A DNA stretch of 64,000 bases from Mycobacteriales bacterium. GTDB taxonomy: Bacteria > Actinomycetota > Actinomycetes > JAFAQI01. The notes under the pieces were generated by a model that did not search any database, was not told the DNA's origin, and saw only the letters and a list, made by a program, of their open reading frames with translations. The stretch spans positions 31,096-95,095 of the forward strand of contig DASZOU010000022.1 in the NCBI GenBank assembly GCA_035550655.1, read 5' to 3'. Every line of letters begins with the position of its first letter. Within the stretch, counting starts at the first letter, position 1. This document shows positions 21,678-33,245 of the stretch, piece by piece. Made by a program: the position numbers and the translations under genes.

Positions 21678-24206
21678 GTGCTCCGGGTCGCCTACTGGTT
21701 GAACCTGCGCCAAGCCCGCCGACGTCCGCTGCGCGCGGCGCTCGCAGTGATCTCGATCGCCGCCGGAGCGTCGCTGGGTGTCTCCGTGCTCGTCATGACG
21801 GCGAGCGTGTCCGCCAGCTTCCACACCTTCGGCCGCCAGCTCGCCGGACCCGCACCACTGCGGATCGTGGGCGCCACATCCAACGGCGGCATCGACGAAA
21901 GCGTCCTCAACACGGTCGAGCGGACCCCGGGCGTGCAGACCGCCGTACCGGTCGTACAGGTCGTCACCTACGCCGGAAGCCGCGCCGATCCGCGGGCGGA
22001 GAGCATCCTCAGCCTCGGCATCGACTGCCGGCTGCAGGCGCTGGTCGGACGGTTCGGTTGCTCCCGGACCGGGCTGACCGCGTTGGGCGACGCGGGTGGC
22101 GTCGCGGTCAGTCCTCAGCTGGCGAGCCGGCTCGGCCCCGACGCCGCTATCCAGACCGACACCGGCACGATTGCGCTGCGCTCGGCGCTGCGGCTGCCGG
22201 CGCTGGCCCGGTTCAACCACGGCGCCGTGGCCGTGTTCCCGCTGCGCGAAGCGCAGCACCTGTTCGCCCGTACGCACCGCCTCGATGCGATCTACGTGAT
22301 CCCGGCGACAGGGGCCGACGTCCGCGACCTGCGCACCCGACTGCAGGCGGCCGTCGGCTCGTGGAACGGCGTGCTCACCGCAACCCAGCCGCCGCCTGCC
22401 ATCGGCATCTACACCGACACGATCCTGCCGCTCTTCGCGCTGCTCAGCCTGTTCGCTCTCGCCGTCGGCGGAATGCTGATCTTCAACATCTCCGCGCTCG
22501 CCATGGAAGAGCGGCGCCGCGAGCTCGCCCTCGTAGCCGCGCTCGGGGGGACCGCCCGGGTGGTCCGGCTCGGGGCGATGCTCGAGGGCGCCGCGCTCGG
22601 GCTGCTGGGCGGACTGCTCGGGGTGGCTGGCGGCACGCTGCTCGCCCGGCCATTGACGGCGAGCCTGTCGAAGTTCACGGTCCTGGTCGTCGGGGTGCGG
22701 ATCCCTGTCCACCTCACGGTTGGGGCGGTCCTCGCAGGGATCGCGCTCGGCGCGGTCGTCGGCGGGATCGCGGCCCTGATGTCGACGCGGCGGATCGGCC
22801 GGATCGACGTCGTCGCCGAGCTGTCGATGCGCGAGGAGACCTTCGACGCACAGCACCGCCGCAACGCCGTGATGGCCGGCGTCTTCATCGTGCTGTGCGT
22901 CTTGGGGTTCGCGGTCTGCTGGGTCGCTCAGCGCAACGGCGCCATCGAGCCGTGGCAGGCAAAGATCGCGCCCGTCGGCGTGCTGCTCGCGACGGTGTCG
23001 TCACTGCTCGCCTCGGCGTCGCTCGCGGCGGTGATCGCGGCCACCCTCGCGCGGCTCGTCCGTGGCTTCGACGGACCGCTTCGGCTCGGCATCGCGAACC
23101 TGGCGCGGCAGGGCCGGCGCGCCGGTGTGATGGCAGTCGCGGTGGGCGCCGCGGTGACGACGGCGTTCGTCATAGGCAGCACCCAAGCCGCCGCGAAGGC
23201 TGACATCGCCCACAGCATCGAGACCGGGCACCCGCAGGAGGTGTACGTCTCGACGCTGTCCCCCAACAACACGGTCAACATCGAGTCCAAGCCGACCGCG
23301 GCCCTCGGTGCTGCCCTCGGCCGCATCCCGGGCGTCGCACGGGTGGACCGCAGCGAGTTCGTCCTCAGCGGGCACGACAGCAGCCATTTGGTCGGGATCC
23401 TGGCCGCGACGTACCCGTGGCTGAACCTGCCGTTGATCGAGGGCAGCAAGAGCCCGCAGTCGTTCGCGTCCGGCCGGGTGCTGATCGGCGCTGCCCTCGC
23501 GCGAGACCGTGGGCTTCGCCCCGGGTCCACGATGCTCATCGACACCCCGACCGGCCGCAAACCGGTGACCGTCGGCGGCGTCTGGCGGGACGGCAACCTG
23601 GGCGGTCGCGCCGTCACCATCCCGATGTCGCTGTATCAGCGGCTCTTCGGCAGGCAGCCGGTGCAGAGCTTCGGGCTGATTCCGGTCCGCGGCCTCAGCG
23701 CCGCGGCGCTCGCCGACCGAGTCAGGGCAGCGAGCCTGCTTCCCGGACTGATCGTCGAAGATCCGGCGCAGTACGCCGCAGACATCTCCTCCTCCGTCAA
23801 CGACCAGCTGTCGCCGTTCACCGCGATGCAGCGCGGGCTGCTTCTCGTCGCGTTCGTCGCCGTGCTCTCGACACTGCTCCTGGTCGGTGTGCAGCGCCGG
23901 CGCGAGCTCGGCCTCCTGGCAGCAGTCGGAATGGAACCGTCACAGCTTGCCCGGATGACGATTGCCGAGGGTCTGTGCGCCGGGGTCGTCGGCCTCGCGC
24001 TGGCGTTGGTCGGGTCGGTCGTGATCCAGACCGGCTTCCACCTCGTCTTGCCGATCATCATCGGGTTCAAGGACCCGCTCCGCTACGACTTCGTCAGCTT
24101 CGCGGTATGGGCGGCCGCCTCGCTCGTCCTGGTCGGCGCCGCATCGGTGCTACCGGCCTGGCGCAACGCACGCGTACCAGTCCTCGAATCCCTGCAATAC
24201 GAGTAA
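21678..24206 (+). CDS. FtsX-like ABC permease with two FtsX/MacB permease domains (842 aa)
   Basis: Two repeats of the 4-TM FtsX module, each preceded by a large extracytoplasmic domain. Starts immediately after the ATPase gene. Confidence 0.85.
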   Translation: MLRVAYWLNLRQARRRPLRAALAVISIAAGASLGVSVLVMTASVSASFHTFGRQLAGPAPLRIVGATSNGGIDESVLNTVERTPGVQTAVPVVQVVTYAGSRADPRAESILSLGIDCRLQALVGRFGCSRTGLTALGDAGGVAVSPQLASRLGPDAAIQTDTGTIALRSALRLPALARFNHGAVAVFPLREAQHLFARTHRLDAIYVIPATGADVRDLRTRLQAAVGSWNGVLTATQPPPAIGIYTDTILPLFALLSLFALAVGGMLIFNISALAMEERRRELALVAALGGTARVVRLGAMLEGAALGLLGGLLGVAGGTLLARPLTASLSKFTVLVVGVRIPVHLTVGAVLAGIALGAVVGGIAALMSTRRIGRIDVVAELSMREETFDAQHRRNAVMAGVFIVLCVLGFAVCWVAQRNGAIEPWQAKIAPVGVLLATVSSLLASASLAAVIAATLARLVRGFDGPLRLGIANLARQGRRAGVMAVAVGAAVTTAFVIGSTQAAAKADIAHSIETGHPQEVYVSTLSPNNTVNIESKPTAALGAALGRIPGVARVDRSEFVLSGHDSSHLVGILAATYPWLNLPLIEGSKSPQSFASGRVLIGAALARDRGLRPGSTMLIDTPTGRKPVTVGGVWRDGNLGGRAVTIPMSLYQRLFGRQPVQSFGLIPVRGLSAAALADRVRAASLLPGLIVEDPAQYAADISSSVNDQLSPFTAMQRGLLLVAFVAVLSTLLLVGVQRRRELGLLAAVGMEPSQLARMTIAEGLCAGVVGLALALVGSVVIQTGFHLVLPIIIGFKDPLRYDFVSFAVWAAASLVLVGAASVLPAWRNARVPVLESLQYE

Positions 24207-24296
24207 GGCCAGTGACGGACGCGGGCGCCCTTCGTGGCGTCGGCGGGACCGACTCCAAGATCGTTTCCGTCATAGCTCGGCCGTAAGTTCCGCTGC

Positions 24297-24782
24297 GTGA
24301 AGACGCGGACATGCACTGAGTGTCGGCGCATCTTCCAGCCGTCAAGCGGCCATCTGAGATGTCCTTCATGTAGATCGAAGGGTGTCTGCGGTTGCGGTAA
24401 GCCCAAACAAGTCAAGTCGTCGACCTGCGCCGACTGCCGTACCGAGGGCGGCTCATCCAACGGCAACTGGCGCGGTGGACGAACACGACACAAGGCCGGC
24501 TACATCTTGGTCAAAGCGCGCTTGCATCCACGGGGCGGCTCAAGCGGCTACGTGTTCGAGCACATCCTTGTCGCGGAAGAGCTCCTTGGCCGGTACCTGG
24601 CGCCGGACGAGACGATCCACCATCGAAATGGCGTCCGCGACGACAACCGTCCGGAGACCCTCGAGCTGTGGACGCGACCGCAGCCTTCCGGCATCCGCGC
24701 ACGCGATGCGCTCGCCTGGGCGCACGAGATCATCGCGCGCTACGAGGGAACGGGGTCGCCTCCAACAACGCTCACATCGTGA
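24297..24782 (+). CDS. HNH endonuclease with N-terminal Cys-rich zinc ribbon
   Basis: GTG start. CxxC…CxxC…CGCG…CxxC then HNH core GYVFEHILVAEELLGRYLAPDETIHHRNGVRDDNRPENLELW. It sits 98 bp from the 3-prime end of ssrA on the opposite strand. Confidence 0.75.
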   Translation: MKTRTCTECRRIFQPSSGHLRCPSCRSKGVCGCGKPKQVKSSTCADCRTEGGSSNGNWRGGRTRHKAGYILVKARLHPRGGSSGYVFEHILVAEELLGRYLAPDETIHHRNGVRDDNRPETLELWTRPQPSGIRARDALAWAHEIIARYEGTGSPPTTLTS

Positions 24783-24842
24783 GCGCTCATGTTCCTCGCG
24801 AAGGCGGAGCCTTCGCTCGTCAACGAACTTGATCGCCTCGGA

Positions 24843-24858
24843 AGAGCGCAAGCGCTCT
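24843..24858. terminator. Short hairpin AGAGCGC-AA-GCGCTCT between the convergent HNH gene and ssrA
   Basis: 7-bp perfect stem read directly. Lies just downstream of the tmRNA 3-prime end (minus strand) and the HNH stop (plus strand). Confidence 0.3.
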
Positions 24859-24879
24859 CCGCTCGGCTCACGGCGTTCG

Positions 24880-25236
24880 TGGAGGCGGCGGGATTCGAAC
24901 CCGCGTCCTTCGGCGGTTCATCAAGGCTTCTCCGGGCGCAGCCTGTTGCGGTTTTCTCAGCTCCAGCGGCGGCACAGGCGCCCCGCTGCGAGCTCAGTCA
25001 CTGTTTGATTTCCCTTGGATCCCCGTGACCGGGATCCGCGGTGGAGCCTCCTATCGATGCCAGGTCCTAGAGCGGAGGCGCCCCTAGGCTGACAGCTCTG
25101 CTACCTGTCAGGCAGCGAGAGCGAGCCGGTTGTTATCGGCATTTATTGAAGTTGCCGCGAGTGGTTTGCGAGATCACGCGACATCCTCGGCCCGCTTCCC
25201 TTGAATCGACGTCCGAAGTCGAAACCGTTCGCCCCC
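24880..25236 (-). ncRNA. ssrA: tmRNA (transfer-messenger RNA, SsrA), ~357 nt, CCA not encoded
   Basis: Reverse complement begins GGGGGCGAACGGTTTCGACTTCGGACGTCGATTCAAGGGAAGCGGGCCGAGG and ends …GGGTTCGAATCCCGCCGCCTCCA (tRNA-Ala-like acceptor with a G3:U pair). The internal tag ORF at 25108-25140 (minus) reads GCC GAT AAC AAC CGG CTC GCT CTC GCT GCC TGA, giving A-DNNRLALAA-stop. Confidence 0.9.
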
Positions 25237-25314
25237 TCGTGTGTTCGGTGATGAGTACAACGTCGAGCGTACCCCTCGGCTTCCCACCAGGAACCTCGGA
25301 TTTCTGCCACCCCA

Positions 25315-25331
25315 ATACCCCAGGGGGGTAT
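25315..25331. promoter_or_regulatory. RicR/CsoR-type operator ATACCCC-AGG-GGGGTAT (TACCC-N5-GGGTA) upstream of the permease-csoR operon
   Basis: Perfect 7-bp inverted repeat read directly. It matches the published RicR/CsoR GC-rich pseudopalindrome class and lies 58 bp upstream of the permease ATG. Confidence 0.6.
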
Positions 25332-25388
25332 TTTGCAAGGGTGGGCACGCTCTCGACGATCTGGCACAGCCTCGACGAGGGCTTCTTC

Positions 25389-26579
25389 ATGTTCTGGCAG
25401 ACGCTCTGGGCTCTCGTGCTCGGCTTCGTGCTCTCCGGCGCCGTCCAGGCCCTGGTGTCACGTCGCGCGATGGTGCGCACCATGGGCGATCACGGCCCCG
25501 CCGCGATCACCCGCGCGTCCCTGTTCGGGATGGCGAGCTCCTCCTGCTCCTACGCCGCCAGCGCGCTGGCTCGGTCGCTGTTCGACCGCGGCGCCGACTT
25601 CACCACGGCAATCGTCTTCATGGTCGCCTCGACGAACCTCGTCATCGAGCTCGGTCTCGTGATGTGGCTCCTGATCGGCTGGCAGCTCGCCGCTGCCGAG
25701 TTCCTCGGCGGCGCGATCATGATCGTCCTGCTCGCAGCGCTCCTGCCGAAGGCGGCGAGCGCCTCGCTCCTCGAAACAACGAGAGCGCACCGAGATGACG
25801 CGCAAGCGGAGCCTGAAGACTCCGAACCCGACGCCGGCTTCCGCGCTCGGTTGCAGGATCCCGCTCGGCGTCGGGCCGCCGCCCGCTACACGTTGTCGGA
25901 CCTGTCCATGCTGCGCCGCGAGATCGTCATCGGCTTCGTGGTCGCCGGGTTCCTCGCGGTCGGCGTCCCGACTCGGGTGTGGTCGGCCGTCTTCATCCAC
26001 GGTCACGGCGCCCTGACCGCGATCGAGAACGCCCTCGTCGGCCCTGCCGTCGCGATGGTGAGCTTCGTCTGCTCGATCGGCAACGTGCCGCTCGCCGCCG
26101 CGCTCTGGCAACGCGGCGTGAGCTTCGGCGGCGTAATCGCCTTCGTCTTCGCCGACCTGCTCTCGCTGCCGCTCGTCCTCATCTACCGCAAGCTGTACGG
26201 CGGCCGGCTGACACTGCGGCTCGTGGCGGTGCTCTGGTTCGCCATGAGCAGCGCCGGGCTTCTCACCGAGGTCGTCATGCGCGCCCTCGGCGGGATTCCC
26301 GGTCATCGGCCGCGGCTCGTCGCGGCCGAGCACTTCGCCTGGAACCACACGACCGTGCTGAACATCATTGCTCTGGTCGGCTTCGCGCTCGTCGTCCGCG
26401 CCGGACGCGGCGCCAGGGCGGACGACGGCGGCTCGCCGTACGCGATCGATCCGGTGTGCGGCATGCAGGTCGAGCGCGCGCACGCGCCCGCGTCGTACGG
26501 CGACGGCGTGACCCAGGTCTACTTCTGCAGCACTCGATGCCGGGATCACTACGTGACGGACAGGGAGACGGTGGCATGA
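25389..26579 (+). CDS. YraQ/ArsP-like (DUF318) permease fused to a C-terminal YHS/TRASH metal-binding domain
   Basis: Polytopic permease with the family Cys motif (…MASSSCSYAAS…). The C-terminus DPVCGMQV…YFCSTRCRDHY is a YHS/TRASH domain. The track's longer N-terminus (from 25146) would run through the tmRNA gene, so the start is set at ATG 25389 (an in-frame GTG at 25341 is also possible). Confidence 0.8.
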   Translation: MFWQTLWALVLGFVLSGAVQALVSRRAMVRTMGDHGPAAITRASLFGMASSSCSYAASALARSLFDRGADFTTAIVFMVASTNLVIELGLVMWLLIGWQLAAAEFLGGAIMIVLLAALLPKAASASLLETTRAHRDDAQAEPEDSEPDAGFRARLQDPARRRAAARYTLSDLSMLRREIVIGFVVAGFLAVGVPTRVWSAVFIHGHGALTAIENALVGPAVAMVSFVCSIGNVPLAAALWQRGVSFGGVIAFVFADLLSLPLVLIYRKLYGGRLTLRLVAVLWFAMSSAGLLTEVVMRALGGIPGHRPRLVAAEHFAWNHTTVLNIIALVGFALVVRAGRGARADDGGSPYAIDPVCGMQVERAHAPASYGDGVTQVYFCSTRCRDHYVTDRETVA

Positions 26580-26866
26580 CCACAACGCGCGGCTACACCG
26601 CGGACAAGGCGGCGTACCAGCGCCGGTTGCGCCGGATCGAGGGACAGGTGCGCGGCATCGCGCGGATGGTGGACGACGACGAGTACTGCATCGACGTACT
26701 GACCCAGGTCGCAGCCGTCACCAAGGCGCTGCAGGCGGTCGCCCTCGGCCTGCTGGAGGACCACCTCGGACACTGCGTGCGCGAGGCCGTTGCGGACGGC
26801 GGTGACGATGCCGACGTGAAGCTGCGCGAGGCCTCCGAAGCCATCGCCAGACTGGTTCGCTCGTAG
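26576..26866 (+). CDS. csoR: CsoR/RicR-family copper-sensing transcriptional repressor (DUF156)
   Basis: 96 aa; YCIDVLTQVAAV…HLGHCV contains the Cys-His-Cys Cu(I) ligand set. ATGA overlap with the permease stop. Confidence 0.85.
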   Translation: MTTTRGYTADKAAYQRRLRRIEGQVRGIARMVDDDEYCIDVLTQVAAVTKALQAVALGLLEDHLGHCVREAVADGGDDADVKLREASEAIARLVRS

Positions 26867-26950
26867 CGCGGTTGCGCGGCGACTTTCCACAGTCACGGGC
26901 CGAAATCCCTTTATTCACAAGACAATTCAGGGCTTGACACTAGGCATTCT

Positions 26951-26966
26951 TCGAACATATGTTCGA
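26951..26966. promoter_or_regulatory. LexA SOS box (Cheo-type) TCGAACATATGTTCGA overlapping the -10 of the REP13E12 gene promoter
   Basis: Perfect match to the actinobacterial/mycobacterial consensus TCGAAC-N4-GTTCGA. TTGACA at 26934-26939 and TATGTT at 26958-26963 with an 18-nt spacer form a sigma-70-like promoter. Confidence 0.7.
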
Positions 26967-26969
26967 GTC

Positions 26970-28280
26970 GTGCTGGACCCCGAGTTCGATCGCATCTTCG
27001 GAAAGACGGATGCGCGGCTCGCTGTGCTGGAAGAGATGCCGGTGGGTGGCGCTCTCGCATCGGCACTCGTCGCGCTGCGGAGCCTGCAGATGGACGGGTA
27101 CGCCGCGGTCCGGGTTCATGCCCTGTGGTCGAAGGTCATCGCGTGGGCGGCGGCTCAACAGATGATCGCCACGAATGACTGCGTCAGCGGTGTGCGCGGA
27201 CTCGTCGGACCGCCGGACGATCCCCACGAGGCCTACGTGCTCGCCGCGCAGGAGATTGCGTGCGCCACCTCCGTCCCCTACCCGACAGCGATGGCGCAGA
27301 TCGAGCTCGTCGACCGGATCGGGGAATGCATGCCCGAGAGCTGGTCGGCACTCGACCGGGGCGACATCTCGTTGAACCACGTGAAGGCATGTCACCGCGC
27401 GACGCGCAACTGCCCGCCGAGGGTCGCCGCCGCGGTCGAAGCACAGGTGATCCCGCAGGCGGTTGCGCGTGGCTGGACGCCGAGCGAGCTCGCTCGCGCG
27501 GCGCGCAAGCTCATCATCACGATCGATCCGGAGGGCGCCGCGCAGCGCGAGGCGGAAGCCAAGACCAGGTCCGACGTCGAGTTCTTCCCGGGCGAGGACG
27601 GCATGGCCGGACTGAACTCGTTCGGCCCGGCTCCGCTGGTCCGAGAGATGGCCGACGTGATCGACGATCGTGCCGCAACGATGAAGCGTGAGGGCGACAA
27701 CCGATCGATCGGCCTGCGGCGTTTCCAGGCGCTGTACGACGCCGTCGTCGGCTCGTCGGCCGGCTCCAAGCCGAGTCCCGCCCGCGCGCACACGCTGCTG
27801 ACCGTCCCGCTCACCACGGTGCTCGGGCTTGATGACCAACCCGGCGAGCTGGCCGGCTACGGGCCGGTCACTGCGGCAACCGCGCGCCGGATCGCCGCAG
27901 ACTCGACGTTGAGCCGGCTCGTCACCGACCCGATGTCCGGTACGCCGATCGACCTGGGCCGAAAGTACAAGCCGTCGCGTCTACTGCGCGACCTCGTCAA
28001 GGCCACGCAGCCACGGTGCTCGATGATCGGCTGCTCCCGGCCGGCGTACCAGTGCGAGATGGACCACCGACTCGAGCACAACCGGGGCGGTGACACCAAT
28101 CCACAGAACCTGCAACCACTGTGCAAGCTGCATCACCAGCTGAAGACGAAGCAGCGCTGGAAGGTCGGCATCAACGCCGACGGCGAGCAGGAGTGGACCA
28201 GCTACCTCGGCTTCCGCTACGTCTCGCGCGACCGGGACCCGCGGGCCGGCGACCCCGACCCGCCGCGGCAGGTGGCGTGA
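26970..28280 (+). CDS. REP13E12-family protein (DUF222 N-terminal domain + C-terminal HNH nuclease)
   Basis: DUF222 body followed by CSMIGCSRPAYQCEMDHRLEHNRGGDTNPQNLQPLCKLHHQLK (HNH). The start is uncertain; in-frame GTG 26970 is used, and the track's TTG at 26934 lies inside the promoter. Confidence 0.8.
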   Translation: MLDPEFDRIFGKTDARLAVLEEMPVGGALASALVALRSLQMDGYAAVRVHALWSKVIAWAAAQQMIATNDCVSGVRGLVGPPDDPHEAYVLAAQEIACATSVPYPTAMAQIELVDRIGECMPESWSALDRGDISLNHVKACHRATRNCPPRVAAAVEAQVIPQAVARGWTPSELARAARKLIITIDPEGAAQREAEAKTRSDVEFFPGEDGMAGLNSFGPAPLVREMADVIDDRAATMKREGDNRSIGLRRFQALYDAVVGSSAGSKPSPARAHTLLTVPLTTVLGLDDQPGELAGYGPVTAATARRIAADSTLSRLVTDPMSGTPIDLGRKYKPSRLLRDLVKATQPRCSMIGCSRPAYQCEMDHRLEHNRGGDTNPQNLQPLCKLHHQLKTKQRWKVGINADGEQEWTSYLGFRYVSRDRDPRAGDPDPPRQVA

Positions 28281-28287
28281 CGAGAAC

Positions 28288-28764
28288 TCAGACCCAGCCT
28301 TTTGAGCGCCTGCCGGTCGCGCGCTCGATCTCACGCGCAGCGTCCCGCGCGGCGAGGGTCTGCCGCTTGTCGTAGGCACGCTTTCCGCGCGCCAAGGCGA
28401 TCTCGACCTTCACCTTGCCGTCCTTGAAGTACAGCTGCAGCGGGACGAGCGTGAGGCCCGACTCCTTGGTCTTGCCGACCAGCTTCGCGATCTCCTCGCG
28501 GTGAAGCAGCAGCTTGCGGCGCCGGCGCGGCTCATGGTTGGTCCAGGTGCCCTGCGTGTACTCGGGGATGTGCAGGTTCTCCAGCCACACCTCGCCGTCA
28601 CGCACTGTGGCGTAGGAGTCGACCAGCGACGCCCGCCCCGCACGCAGCGACTTCACTTCGGTTCCCTGCAGCACGACGCCTGCCTCGTAGACGTCCTCGA
28701 TCGCGTAGTCGTGGCGAGCCTTGCGGTTCTGCGCGATGAGCTTGCGGCCGGACTCCTTCACCAT
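28288..28764 (-). CDS. smpB: SsrA-binding protein SmpB
   Basis: 158 aa; [32 protein letters not shown]…LENLHIPEY…LLLHREE is the canonical SmpB sequence. Confidence 0.95.
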
Positions 28765-28779
28765 GGGTCAACAGCGCCG

Positions 28780-29943
28780 TCAGCCGGCGCTGCCGGCGTC
28801 GGCGGTGAGACCGGAGAGCACCTCGATGGCGTGCTGGTAGAGCACCGACTGCGGAACCTCTGGGCCGAGGATGACGTCGGGAGTGATGCCGACGCCGTCG
28901 AGCGATCGTCCCTGGGGCGTCAGGTAGTGCCCGACGGTGAGCTCGATGTCGGATCCGTCCGAGAGCCGGTCAGGAGCCTGCACGCTGCCCTTGCCGAACG
29001 TCTGCGATCCGACGATCACCGCGCGGCCGCGGTCCTGCAGCGCACCCGCGACGATCTCCGCGGCACTCGCCGTACCGCCGTTCACCAGGACCACGAGCGG
29101 GATCGCGGTGTTGCCGCGACCACCGGTCGTACCGAGCGGAAGCGGTGCCGAGCCCCGCTGCACATAGCTCACCACGGTGCCGCGATCGAGGAACACCGAC
29201 GCGGTCCGGACCGCCTCGTCCAGCAGGCCGCCGGGGTCGTCCCGCAGGTCGAGCACGATGCCGCGCAGGTGGTCGCGCTCGGCGGCGCGCACCCGAGCGC
29301 GCACCCAGTCACCGACACCACGCGTGAACATCGCGACCCGCAGCCGCTCGACGCCCGGCGCGAGACGTTGCGCGCTCACGTCACCGTTGCGGATCGTCGC
29401 CCGCGACAGCACGTCCGTGACCGACCGGCCGCCGCGATCCACGCGGACGGTCACGCTGGTGCCCGGGCGCCCCCACAGCGCGTCGGCGACGTCCGCGACC
29501 GTCCGGCCGGTCACCGGCAGGCCCGCCACCGCGGTGAGCACGTCTCCCACCCGCAGCCCGGCGCGTGCGGCAGGCGAGCCGCTCTGCACGCTCTCGATCC
29601 GCAGCACACCCGAGGCGGCACGGCGGACCCAGATCCCGACCCCGCTGTAGGAACCGGAGAGGGTCTGCTCGTACCGGGCGAACTCCGTCGGCTCGTAGTA
29701 CGCCGACCACGGGTCACCCAGCGCCCGAAGCATGCCGTCCACCGCAGCCTGCTGCAGCACCGATTCCGGCACCGGCTTGGAAGCGTGCGACTCGATCGCC
29801 CTGACCGCCTGGTCGAGCACGGTGGCGCGACCTGCTGCGGGCGTCCCGGCACCACGATGCAGGGCGGCACCCGTCGCGACCCCGGCGCCGAACACCGCCA
29901 CGGTCGCCGCGAGGGCAAGCGGCCGGACGCTCGCGAGCCGCAT
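28780..29943 (-). CDS. S41-family C-terminal processing peptidase (Ctp-like)
   Basis: Signal/TM N-terminus, PDZ domain (GLRVGDVLTAVAG) and S41 catalytic region (…GGTASAAEIVAGALQD…, Ser/Lys dyad context). Confidence 0.85.
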   Translation of the reverse strand: MRLASVRPLALAATVAVFGAGVATGAALHRGAGTPAAGRATVLDQAVRAIESHASKPVPESVLQQAAVDGMLRALGDPWSAYYEPTEFARYEQTLSGSYSGVGIWVRRAASGVLRIESVQSGSPAARAGLRVGDVLTAVAGLPVTGRTVADVADALWGRPGTSVTVRVDRGGRSVTDVLSRATIRNGDVSAQRLAPGVERLRVAMFTRGVGDWVRARVRAAERDHLRGIVLDLRDDPGGLLDEAVRTASVFLDRGTVVSYVQRGSAPLPLGTTGGRGNTAIPLVVLVNGGTASAAEIVAGALQDRGRAVIVGSQTFGKGSVQAPDRLSDGSDIELTVGHYLTPQGRSLDGVGITPDVILGPEVPQSVLYQHAIEVLSGLTADAGSAG

Positions 29944-29946
29944 CGC

Positions 29947-30846
29947 CTACACCCTCAGATGGCGCTGCAGCGTGAGGAAGGACGCGATCGCCGGTAGCAG
30001 GATGCCGATGAGGATGACGAGCGGCAGCGCCTCCCACAACGTCGACCACTGGCCGAAGGGCGCGAGCACCCGCGTCGCCAGCGTGCTGGAGATGTACCAC
30101 CGGACGAGCAGGAGCAACACCACCGCGAGACCGGAACCGGCGACCCCCGCCGCGGTGCCCTCGAGCACGAACGGCGCCTGGATGTAGAAGTCCGATGCGC
30201 CGACCAGCCGCATGATGCCGGTCTCCCGGCGACGGCTGAACGCCGCCACCCGCATCGAGTTGTAGATCAGCAGGCAGGTGGAGATCAGCAGCAGGACAGT
30301 GAGCAGCAGCGCGCCGAGCGTCACGTGGTGGAAGAAGGCGAACAGCCGCTTGAGGGTCGACGAGGCGTTCTGGACCGACTGCACGCCCGGCGCTCGGCCC
30401 ACGGCGCTCGTCACCACCGCGAACTGGTGCGGGTCCTTGAGCTTCACCGCGAAGGACTCGGGCAGCTGGTCCTGCGTCGTCACGCGGACCAGGTCAGGGT
30501 TGCCCTTGAACTCTTCCTTGAACCGCTTGTACGCGTCGGCCTGCGAGATGTAGGTGACGTGCTCGACCTGCGGCAGCCCGTTGAGCGTGTTCTCGATGTT
30601 GGTGCGGTCCGCGTCGGTGAGGCAGTTGGAGCCGGCCTGCGGCGTTCCGCACACGGGCTGCAGGTAGACCGACACCTCGATCTGGTTGAGCAGATCGTGC
30701 TCGAGCTGGTTGGCGCCGACCCGGATGATCAGCGCGATGCCGAGCAAGGTCAGTGAGATCGCGACCGTCATGACCGCCGCGATCGTCATCGTCACGTTTC
30801 GCTTGAGGCCGATCCCGACCTCTTGCAGCACGAACTCGGTGCGCAC
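29947..30846 (-). CDS. ftsX: Cell-division ABC transporter permease FtsX
   Basis: 299 aa, 4 TM with a large periplasmic loop. Located between ftsE and the S41 peptidase, as in other actinobacteria. Confidence 0.9.
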   Translation of the reverse strand: MRTEFVLQEVGIGLKRNVTMTIAAVMTVAISLTLLGIALIIRVGANQLEHDLLNQIEVSVYLQPVCGTPQAGSNCLTDADRTNIENTLNGLPQVEHVTYISQADAYKRFKEEFKGNPDLVRVTTQDQLPESFAVKLKDPHQFAVVTSAVGRAPGVQSVQNASSTLKRLFAFFHHVTLGALLLTVLLLISTCLLIYNSMRVAAFSRRRETGIMRLVGASDFYIQAPFVLEGTAAGVAGSGLAVVLLLLVRWYISSTLATRVLAPFGQWSTLWEALPLVILIGILLPAIASFLTLQRHLRV

Positions 30847-32741: not shown

Positions 32742-33245
32742 TTACCGGGCGTCGTCGCAGGCAGCAGTGCTACCCGCGACGGGTGACGTCGCGTGCGCCG
32801 TGTCCCGGACCGGCACCGCACCACCCGCATGCGTGATCCCGAGCCAGCCCAGCAGCCGCCCGAACGGCACCGTGACCTCGCCCCGCAACGCGACGGTCAC
32901 GGTCCCTCCCGCCACCGTGGTGTCGGGCGGATCCAGGTGCCGGAACGTGCGCGCGAGGTCCGGGCTGCGCTGCTCGATCGAGTCACGAGCCATCTTCGCG
33001 GCGCGGGCCGGGTCGAGCGGGAGCGACCCGCCGCAGCGCAGCTCGGGCCCGTCGTAGACCCGGTCGGTGTCGACACCTTGCGCCGCGTCGATCGCCGCGG
33101 CGTCCGCGGCCGACGACAGCGCCCGCTCCGCGAGGAACACCTTCGACACGTCGATGCCGGCGACGATCAACGCGACGGCGATCGCCGTGTAGCCGATGAC
33201 CAGCACCGCGAGCGATCCGTCATCGCGGCCACCCGCTACTCGCAC
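32742..33245 (-). CDS. TadE/TadG-like pseudopilin / pilus-assembly protein
   Basis: N-terminal hydrophobic TadE-type segment (…SLAVLVIGYTAIAVALIVAGIDVS…) followed by a soluble domain. Third of three consecutive TadE-like genes; start uncertain. Confidence 0.5.
   Translation of the reverse strand: MRVAGGRDDGSLAVLVIGYTAIAVALIVAGIDVSKVFLAERALSSAADAAAIDAAQGVDTDRVYDGPELRCGGSLPLDPARAAKMARDSIEQRSPDLARTFRHLDPPDTTVAGGTVTVALRGEVTVPFGRLLGWLGITHAGGAVPVRDTAHATSPVAGSTAACDDAR

Follow-up and report, generated by a model that had tools for sequence, protein, structure and literature searches.

A predicted type 2 CsoR operator embedded in the probable promoter of a DUF318 permease-csoR operon beside ssrA

Introduction

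The stretch of DNA analysed here (the window; 64,000 nt) carries a gene for a DUF318 permease followed by a gene for a CsoR-family repressor, in an arrangement back to back with the tmRNA gene ssrA. The locus raises the question of which signal controls the two genes, and of what the permease moves across the membrane and in which direction. The answer is developed below from the operator outward to the promoter, the permease with its C-terminal module, and the repressor. The features discussed are collected in Table 1.

Table 1. Features of the permease-csoR locus and its divergent neighbour, with positions in the window.
Feature	Position	Strand	Description
tmRNA gene (ssrA)	24877..25236	-	Divergent neighbour, outside the operon; ARAGORN; Rfam RF00023, 154 bits
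CsoR operator (type 2), predicted	25314..25332	.	AATACCCC-AGG-GGGGTATT; exact TACCC-N5-GGGTA and ATACCC-N5-GGGTAT inside
-10 hexamer, predicted	25329..25334	+	TATTTT (TANNNT); in the operator arm on the gene side, 6 nt before the GTG
Permease gene	25341..26579	+	412 aa; GTG start; TGA 26577-26579; DUF318/ArsP_1 core, residues 17-310
YHS/TRASH-like module	26436..26570	+	Residues ~366-410; candidate ligands D370, C373, C396 and C400 (D-x2-C-x22-C-x3-C)
csoR	26576..26866	+	96 aa; ATG 26576-26578 overlaps the permease stop (ATGA); x-C-H-C set; DNA-binding motif RLRRIEGQ

Results

Operator and neighbouring tmRNA gene

An inverted repeat with TACCC-N5-GGGTA was present at 25315-25331, as the first-pass annotation had claimed, but it was not a perfect palindrome over its 17 nt: the 17-mer ATACCCCAGGGGGGTAT consisted of 7-nt arms and a 3-nt spacer, and the arms could be extended to 8 nt (AATACCCC-AGG-GGGGTATT, 25314-25332). 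The type 2 CsoR operator of Streptomyces has been defined experimentally as ATATACCCCTNAGGGGTATAT (PMC3902906), with its two conserved hexamers at positions 3-8 and 14-19 of the consensus. The repeat agreed with both hexamers, matching 12 of 12 positions of ATACCC-N5-GGGTAT within 25315-25331, and contained the TAC-N9-GTA dyad. When four genomes were aligned, ATACCC and GGGGTA were invariant and the flanking bases were variable. This is a predicted CsoR repressor site, which would also form the promoter of the permease-csoR operon.

A scan for further sites, which had been proposed in the same annotation and was run on the 64-kb window, left the operator as the sole match to ATACCC-N5-GGGTAT, with no additional operators at up to 2 mismatches. 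A copy of TACCC-N5-GGGTA with 1 mismatch (GGGTG) at 32771 was rejected, being intracoding, adjoining prfB and at chance level (0.37 expected).

Conservation was assessed in 80 related genome loci, 77 of them testable for the operator, with agreement at 10 or more of the 12 positions counted as a match. The operator preceded the leading gene of the operon at 45 of the 77 loci, and no background window of 181 nt in the same loci reached that score; the linkage of operator and gene is conserved across related loci. The csoR gene adjoined the permease gene in 40/80 loci (csoR>permease in 32, permease>csoR in 8), and modules of the same kind are frequent among uncultured actinobacteria and in related phyla. 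In 38/80 permease loci csoR was not adjacent, and in 32/77 a recognisable operator was absent; copper control thus does not extend to the whole permease family. As far as it can be followed in silico, the reading of the locus as a permease-repressor operon was borne out by the operator consensus match, the similarity of the repressor to 4ADZ (see below) and the operator linkage in the 45 loci.

The operator had been placed about 80 bp from the 5' end of the tmRNA, and the distance from that end (25236) to the 17-mer was indeed 78 nt. The further suggestion that the region is shared with the tmRNA promoter held for the back-to-back proximity, but there was no sign of the operator overlapping the ssrA core promoter. 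The short intergenic region that holds the palindrome is shared with ssrA and has a further TACCCC block closer to the tmRNA gene, as would suit a G/C-tract arisen by chance, or a structural part of the ssrA promoter region, in place of a repressor site. Such an origin is very improbable: only ~0.0015 exact matches to ATACCC-N5-GGGTAT were expected in the window by base composition, and the operator motif also precedes csoR/permease operons in loci with no tmRNA gene nearby. By sequence comparison with the related loci and across the four-genome alignment, it appears effectively refuted.

The divergent arrangement with the tmRNA gene was repeated in loci L001, L081 and L082, and the position of the cassette between smpB and ssrA was kept in relatives down to 67% identity. 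This conserved order therefore indicates old synteny and not a recent insertion. A genomic island integrated at ssrA was also considered and rejected, as the 3' end of the tmRNA had no repeat elsewhere in the window and synteny was conserved. The idea that copper stress is coupled to trans-translation via this common intergenic region, with the operator ~78 nt upstream of the mature tmRNA 5' end, was unsupported and was set aside. An intrinsic terminator after csoR was likewise rejected, as there was only a weak hairpin at that place (z = -0.83) and no terminator-like site was listed for it. No copZA genes were seen beside the operon.

Start codon and promoter

The first-pass annotation had put the operator 58 bp upstream of the permease, which presupposes a start at ATG 25389. 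That start was rejected, and the start was placed at GTG 25341, 9 nt past the 17-mer. Homologues had invariant S and L residues upstream of the Met encoded by ATG 25389, and the product from GTG 25341 agreed with the deposited 412-aa protein P0001 at 100% identity and coverage. GC3 was 0.63 before 25341 and 1.0 for 25341-25388 (0.90 for the whole gene). The four-genome alignment, in which the spacing of the GTG was invariant, backed the same start.

With the permease starting at GTG 25341, the operator therefore ends 8 nt from the start codon, in the position of the promoter of the regulated gene, and overlaps the predicted -10 box. Among the 45 operators, position 6 of the hexamer was T on the gene side in 28, compared with 10 that had the mirror-image A on the distal arm, and the T was invariant in the four-genome alignment. 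In 15 loci the start codon followed the 17-mer at exactly 9-10 nt, and TANNNT was present in 15/15 of them; the spacing of operator, -10 box and start is conserved among related loci. Since the box lies 6 nt upstream of the GTG, a leaderless mRNA is predicted. The permease promoter is probably leaderless, with the transcript start deduced from spacing and conservation. A cis-regulatory RNA in the leader was rejected, as Rfam over 23000-30000 gave the tmRNA only and practically no leader is left to hold one.

Permease core and C-terminal module

The open reading frame downstream of the operator encoded a DUF318 permease, as annotated: PF03773 was matched with 205.1 bits (gathering score 32.3) over profile positions 12-293 of 294. 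The membrane core consisted of two repeats with one conserved cysteine in each, and the invariant Cys69 (SSSCSYAA) and Cys244 (FVCSIGNVP) were at the tips of predicted helix-break-helix elements. The core is predicted to be ArsB/INDY-like, and no PDB chain had a sequence match to the permease. Its nearest named NCBIfam relatives were efflux transporters, including the SO_0444 Cu/Zn efflux family. The equivalog cut-offs were missed both for SO_0444 (60.4 bits vs. 300) and for SaoE (65.6 bits vs. 325), and the permease therefore belongs to a different subfamily.

The C-terminus of the permease read DPVCGMQV...YFCSTRC and had been called a YHS/TRASH metal-binding tail. This call stood on homologues, invariant ligands and an L24e-like predicted fold, but not on the score of the module itself, which at 21.3-21.8 bits (E ~2e-4) was below the Pfam YHS (PF04945) gathering score of 30.3; a scan of the whole permease at E ≤ 0.01 reported no PF04945 match. 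YHS was the best family for 33/33 column-aligned homologous modules, with a best E of 1.7e-9. In an alignment of 64 sequences, C373, C396 and C400 were invariant and D370 nearly so, and in the alignment of 33 sequences all four residues were invariant. Several full-length homologues carried a precomputed PF04945 annotation, and many in the databases were already labelled 'YraQ/YHS'. The D-x2-C...C-x3-C pattern agrees with the YHS ligand pattern in PMC4626032, where a YHS domain confers copper-specific activation on an adenylyl cyclase of M. phlei. The AF2 model of the isolated domain had a pLDDT of 86.6, and the top PDB matches to it in Foldseek were all L24e/eL24, at a TM of ~0.55 and non-significant E-values (≥ 0.6). 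The module is regarded as a putative metal binder.

The YHS fusion is no peculiarity of this locus. The strict YHS motif occurred at least once in 54 of 81 permeases (those of the 80 loci and of the window), and the tails were modular, with 0-3 YHS copies or a His/Cys tail (HCEHH). The YHS tail was absent from a YHS-less actinomycete clade of DUF318 permeases. A YHS-less relative was encoded directly 3' of a multicopper oxidase gene.

Repressor

The start of csoR overlapped the permease stop, and the regulator was of the CsoR family with a C-H-C ligand set, all as had been annotated; the residues of the set are C38, H63 and C67. PF02583 (CsoR/RcnR) was matched with 102.3 bits (gathering score 22.8). 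The best PDB relative was S. lividans CsoR (4ADZ, E 1.2e-31), in which the Cys/His/Cys ligands of Cu(I) aligned with C38, H63 and C67, and the RLxR motif was also aligned. The N-terminus, MTTTRGYTADK, contained no His and hence no N-terminal His ligand. RicR (NF052430) was the top NCBIfam match but missed its cut-off (154.2 bits vs. 175), and the safe name is therefore 'CsoR family, RicR-like'.

The CsoR/RcnR family also comprises CstR, RcnR, InrS and FrmR, and the FrmR/RcnR models matched the regulator weakly (35 bits); furthermore, PF03773 takes its name from an organoarsenical exporter. In that light the signal for the regulator could be persulfide, Ni/Co, an aldehyde or the like and not Cu(I), and the exported substrate of the permease could be a sulfur compound or, as for ArsP, an organoarsenical. 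This is improbable, because the copper sensors, S. lividans CsoR and RicR, were by far the better matches, and the ligand fingerprint was x-C-H-C with no N-terminal His. The operator is, moreover, of the copper-CsoR type 2 class, and the permease tails are YHS or His/Cys-rich, with one relative adjoining the multicopper oxidase gene.

Discussion

The locus probably constitutes an autoregulated copper-stress operon of two genes, that of the permease followed by csoR, operating by derepression and export. At low copper, apo-CsoR would occupy the one palindromic operator (25314-25332), where two CsoR tetramers would be expected from the type 2 sites of Streptomyces, which bind that number. The gene-proximal half-site GGGGTATT would double as the -10 element TATTTT, so that the transcript would begin at or beside the GTG as a leaderless mRNA and RNA polymerase would be blocked by bound CsoR. 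Cu(I) bound at Cys38'/His63/Cys67 would free the operator of CsoR, and permease and csoR would then be co-transcribed, with translation coupled via the ATGA overlap.

The permease would be a DUF318/ArsP_1 secondary transporter of the elevator type, with a predicted ArsB/INDY-like core and two hairpins, whose tips would bring the two invariant cysteines together in a site for soft metals. The YHS/TRASH module (D370, C373, C396, C400) would gather cytoplasmic Cu(I) and pass it to the cysteine site for export, in a role analogous to that of the variable metal-binding domains of P1B-ATPases. Within this scheme, we infer Cu(I) as the effector of CsoR, export as the direction of transport and, for the YHS module, a location in the cytoplasm and a part in metal hand-off.

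In an alternative with the same regulatory circuit, the permease would import copper or another metal, or redistribute it, for instance to an extracytoplasmic sink or a cuproenzyme. Transposon insertion in Rv2963 slightly raised the copper resistance of M. tuberculosis and improved its growth in mice, the phenotype expected on loss of an importer, and the authors of that work left import or export undecided. That phenotype was, however, weak, irreproducible and uncomplemented. Derepression by high Cu(I) follows the logic of a detoxification gene, the nearest named relatives are efflux transporters, and DUF318 relatives have been found important for metal tolerance in fitness screens. Import or redistribution is accordingly regarded as unlikely, and export remains the preferred direction.

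Actinomycetota, Dormibacterota and Chloroflexota all contain DUF318 permeases that have a YHS or His/Cys tail and are under predicted CsoR control, a clade from which, to our knowledge, no permease has been characterised. These permeases may form, and this is proposed tentatively, a widespread class of secondary (non-ATPase) Cu(I) exporters, elevator-type, with a two-cysteine site and a modular cytoplasmic metal-collecting tail, typically with the -10 box inside the CsoR operator and often with a leaderless mRNA. If so, many actinobacteria of soil and peat, and members of related phyla, would export copper partly via a cheap secondary transporter and not via CopA-type ATPases alone, and the swappable YHS and His/Cys tails would be a natural experiment on accessory metal-binding domains that feed a transport site. 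The fusion of operator, -10 box and start codon would be a compact and well-conserved case of repression of a leaderless gene, and it could become a copper-responsive part for high-GC hosts. For annotation, the permease start is to be taken as the GTG beside the operator, and the sub-threshold YHS tails of the permease family as real. Current understanding is not overturned, as CsoR/RicR control of a putative permease and metal efflux by DUF318 proteins have already been described. Judged on its sequence, the operon is an ordinary, cleanly built one, probably for copper stress, and comparable to RicR-regulated Rv2963 and to the Streptomyces CsoR regulon.

Comparison with known systems

The permease resembles ArsP/DUF318 proteins (PF03773, TC 2.A.119) in its strong PF03773 match, its two-repeat core and its one Cys per repeat; these proteins and their relatives of the SO_0444 family are implicated in metal or metalloid efflux. 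The C-terminal module shares D-x2-C...C-x3-C with the YHS/TRASH modules of Cu-ATPases, M. phlei adenylyl cyclase and L24e, as well as the C-terminal placement; its predicted fold is most like that of L24e, at non-significant E-values. In contrast to those modules, it is fused to a secondary transporter, and this copy is a putative metal binder with a score below the Pfam threshold.

In M. tuberculosis, RicR, a paralogue of CsoR, represses the putative permease gene Rv2963 from a palindromic motif in the promoter until copper releases it, which is the likeness to the present locus. The RicR motif is worded as TACCC-N5-GGGTA. The permease and ricR are separate loci in M. tuberculosis, whereas here the two genes form one operon. 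No literature linking Rv2963 with YHS or DUF318 was found, and when a YHS-less permease from Williamsia was used to search for homologues, the best 120 included none from M. tuberculosis. Such mutant data as exist for a permease of the regulon speak against a simple exporter.

The S. lividans CsoR system is close in both regulator and operator. Its CsoR is the closest solved relative of the repressor, with Cys/His/Cys and RLxR aligned, and its csoR is autoregulated; its type 2 operators (csoR, copZA1 and copZA2) have the two hexamers and the TAC-N9-GTA dyad required for binding, all of which are matched here. The present locus differs in having a single operator, and in that its target is a DUF318 permease in an operon with csoR and not a CopZ/CopA P-type ATPase operon.

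Operator and repressor

The inverted repeat described upstream of the permease was found as an exact TACCC-N5-GGGTA match (Table), in a region reading ...ccccAATACCCCAGGGGGGTATTttgcaagGGTGggc..., and flanking A/T lengthened its arms to 8 nt (25314-25332). It was the sole ATACCC-N5-GGGTAT match in the 64 kb, even at two mismatches, with about 0.0015 exact matches expected in the window from base composition. TACCC-N5-GGGTA is the motif of Mycobacterium tuberculosis RicR operators. In that species a palindromic promoter motif is recognised by RicR in its regulon, to which the putative permease Rv2963 belongs (PMC3944814, PMC10961391). The Streptomyces type-2 CsoR consensus is ATATACCCCTNAGGGGTATAT, with positions 3-8 and 14-19 most conserved, and two CsoR tetramers need the TAC-N9-GTA dyad of the type-2 operator for binding (PMC3902906). 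All twelve conserved positions were matched by the window site, which appears to be an operator of this known type. The sequence TACCCGCGACGGGTG (32771-32785), in a coding region adjoining prfB, matched TACCC-N5-GGGTA with one mismatch; it was rejected as a second operator, being at chance level and missing the GTA dyad.

The csoR product matched PF02583 (CsoR family, 102 bits). Its closest solved relative was S. lividans CsoR (4ADZ, E 1.2e-31), with which the RLRRIEGQ motif and the Cys/His/Cys ligands (C38, H63 and C67) of the repressor aligned, bearing out the C-H-C Cu(I) ligand set of the first-pass annotation. The N-terminal His was absent, leaving the ligand fingerprint x-C-H-C, which we take to be that of the Cu(I) class of the family. 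The RicR model was the top NCBIfam match (154 bits; FrmR and RcnR models, about 35 bits), and, since the cut-off of 175 was not reached, the repressor is CsoR-family, Cu(I)-type and RicR-like, and not RicR by the NCBI criterion. The permease TGA (26577-26579) overlapped the csoR ATG (26576-26578), as had been reported, implying co-transcription and translational coupling.

Features of the permease-csoR region (window positions) and operator-to-start sequences
Feature	Position	Strand	Remarks
HNH_3-domain ORF	24297-24782		161 aa; convergent with the tmRNA gene, about 95 nt from its 3' end
tmRNA gene ssrA	24877-25236	minus	ARAGORN and Rfam
GGGGTA(C/G)(G/C)CT block	25266-25275	minus	candidate ssrA -10 element (TANNNT)
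Operator 17-mer ATACCCCAGGGGGGTAT	25315-25331		7-nt arms, 3-nt spacer
Permease	25341-26579	plus	
csoR	26576-26866	plus	
DUF222 + HNH endonuclease gene	26934-28280		between csoR and smpB
TTGACA-18-TATGTT promoter-like site	26934-26963		
Operator-to-start, window			GGGGTATTTT-GCAAGG-GTG
Operator-to-start, L001			GGGGTACCCT-TGCCTC-GTG
Operator-to-start, L081			GGGGTATCGT-TACGGC-GTG
Operator-to-start, L082			GGGGTATGCT-GGTGGT-GTG

Start codon and promoter

Homologue N-termini, the deposited protein, GC3 and a four-genome alignment all indicated GTG 25341 as the permease start codon, not the Met encoded at 25389. The N-termini of eighteen homologues fell at the GTG codon or within a few residues of it, and Ser and Leu residues invariant among them precede that Met. 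The deposited copy (P0001, 'permease [Mycobacteriales bacterium]', 412 aa) was identical over 100% of the GTG 25341 reading. GC3 was 0.63 at 25146-25340, 1.0 at 25341-25388 and 0.90 over the whole permease gene. In the alignment of the window with three other genomes of its clade (loci L001, L081 and L082), GTG was invariant and its spacing fixed. With this start, 8 nt separate the operator from the start codon; the repeat stood, and its distance of 58 bp from the permease did not.

Also invariant in the four genomes were ATACCC, GGGGTA and a T three bases past the 17-mer, with differing bases between. The conserved T gave the last base of a TANNNT hexamer lying 6 nt ahead of the start codon. 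Actinobacterial -10 elements usually take the form TANNNT, and such spacing to the start codon marks leaderless genes. Among the operators of related loci, the T occurred on the gene side in 28/45 vs. 10/45 for the mirrored A on the distal side. The first gene began exactly 9-10 nt past the 17-mer in 15 loci, all with TANNNT (15/15); in other loci the same operator arm read TATAGT or TATACT, and the short leader after it carried a GGAGG-type ribosome-binding site. A variant operator, ATACAC-N5-GGGTAT (left arm C to A), occurred in five loci (L006, L007, L008, L021 and L064). In L006-L008 an ATG lay just 4 nt past the 17-mer, and promoter geometry there must therefore differ from that of the 9-10 nt class. 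A simple sigma-70 scan called no promoter at the operator because a good -35 was absent; from the sequence pattern, we infer the transcription start, with operator, -10 and leaderless start fused in this operon.

Comparative evidence

One genome per species was scanned, which gave 80 loci encoding permease relatives, mostly from Actinomycetota MAGs (Acidimicrobiia, Frankiales-like, Pseudonocardiaceae), with others from Dormibacterota and Chloroflexota. csoR was directly upstream of the permease in 32/80 loci and downstream in 8/80. Of 77 testable loci, 45 had the operator (at least 10/12 matches) in the 160 nt preceding the first gene of the operon, and none of the other 181-nt windows of these 77 loci scored as high. 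Strict ACCC-N5-GGGT had 47 occurrences in 642 kb, and in 31 loci it lay no more than 200 nt ahead of the operon. In some loci (L003, L005 and L051) the operator directly preceded the permease though csoR was not adjacent. These findings back the operator-CsoR-permease circuit close to the limit of what sequence by itself can give, and the proposed copper-type permease-repressor operon is supported as far as sequence analysis reaches.

Permease and C-terminal module

The permease matched PF03773 (ArsP_1/DUF318; 205 bits), and had no sequence match in the PDB. Both repeats contain predicted helix-break-helix elements; the invariant SSSC69SYAA and FVC244SIGNVP sat in these, at the place where such carriers bind substrate, and a two-thiolate C69/C244 site would suit Cu(I). 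Export is favoured by derepression logic and named efflux relatives; mutant data for Rv2963, the sole regulon permease with such data, are weak and, if anything, against export (PMC3944814).

The C-terminal module alone scored 21.3-21.8 bits (E about 2e-4) against Pfam YHS, below the gathering score of 30.3, and a whole-protein scan at E <= 0.01 found no YHS match. The YHS fusion thus failed the Pfam threshold by which the first-pass annotation itself would have had it judged; its identity was upheld through homologues. The module aligned unambiguously with the tails of 63 homologues, YHS was the best family for 33/33 modules tested (best E 1.7e-9), and several full-length homologues carried a precomputed PF04945 annotation or the name 'YraQ/YHS domain-containing'. 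C373, C396 and C400 were invariant and D370 nearly so in a 64-sequence alignment, and all four were invariant in a 33-sequence alignment. The AlphaFold model of the isolated module was confident (pLDDT 86.6), and its top PDB fold matches were all L24e/eL24 (TM about 0.55, with non-significant E-values). L24e is the TRASH prototype. The D-x2-C-x22-C-x3-C residues fit the YHS/TRASH ligand pattern (PMC4626032). The module is concluded to be a divergent YHS/TRASH module.

The smpB-ssrA neighbourhood

The tmRNA 5' end was 78 nt from the 17-mer, close to the 80 bp first estimated; as to a promoter region shared with ssrA, this proximity was confirmed, and there was no sign of operator overlap with the ssrA core promoter. 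smpB normally adjoins ssrA. Here the permease-csoR cassette lay between them, divergent from ssrA (cluster part 24877-28764), and the minus strand carried all the surrounding genes prfB, ftsE, ftsX, an S41 protease gene and smpB. This position was kept in relatives down to 67% identity (L001, L081, L082 and the contig of homologue P0015), so that ssrA proximity is conserved synteny within one clade. No tmRNA gene was found near the module in outside-clade loci scanned for tRNA/tmRNA genes. Locus L019, lacking csoR and operator, had smpB-amidohydrolase-permease-tmRNA all on a single strand, an arrangement suggestive of an old inversion or of gene loss.

The slot between csoR and smpB was filled by DUF222-HNH in the window and on the P0015 contig and by an amidohydrolase in L081 and L082, and L001 had no gene there. 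The promoter-like site in this slot lay 6 nt ahead of an in-frame GTG at 26970; this GTG, and not the listed TTG, is the probable start of the DUF222-HNH gene, whose mRNA would be a second leaderless one. The slot of the HNH_3 ORF likewise differed from relative to relative. The tmRNA 3' end was not repeated anywhere else in the window, and hence nothing pointed to an intact integrated element. The GGGGTA block, which precedes the mature tmRNA 5' end by about 30 nt, was kept in the window, L001 and L081; in L001 (635-655) it belonged to a second, imperfect operator-like palindrome, GACCCCTCCAGGGTAC.

Tail variation and relation to known systems

At least one strict YHS motif was present in 54/81 permeases (80 loci and the window), with two or three in tandem in some, and relatives at 71-79% identity had a short HCEHH or HCAHH His/Cys tail instead. 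Tail interchange was seen among homologues P0018, P0042, P0053 and P0067 and loci L002, L043, L050, L057, L062 and L072. A large YHS-less clade occurred in Streptomyces, Rhodococcus, Mycolicibacterium and Williamsia. In a Williamsia sp. (L080:2492-5173), a three-domain multicopper oxidase gene was followed after 18 nt by a YHS-less relative of the permease with a short His-containing C-terminus, independently supporting a copper role of the wider family; gene neighbours of the permease family point to copper.

The initial observation is real once two points, start codon and YHS score, are corrected. The permease family is widespread and already annotated, its tails vary much as accessory metal-binding domains of metal pumps do, and the locus adds one more member to the known class of CsoR/RicR-controlled copper genes.
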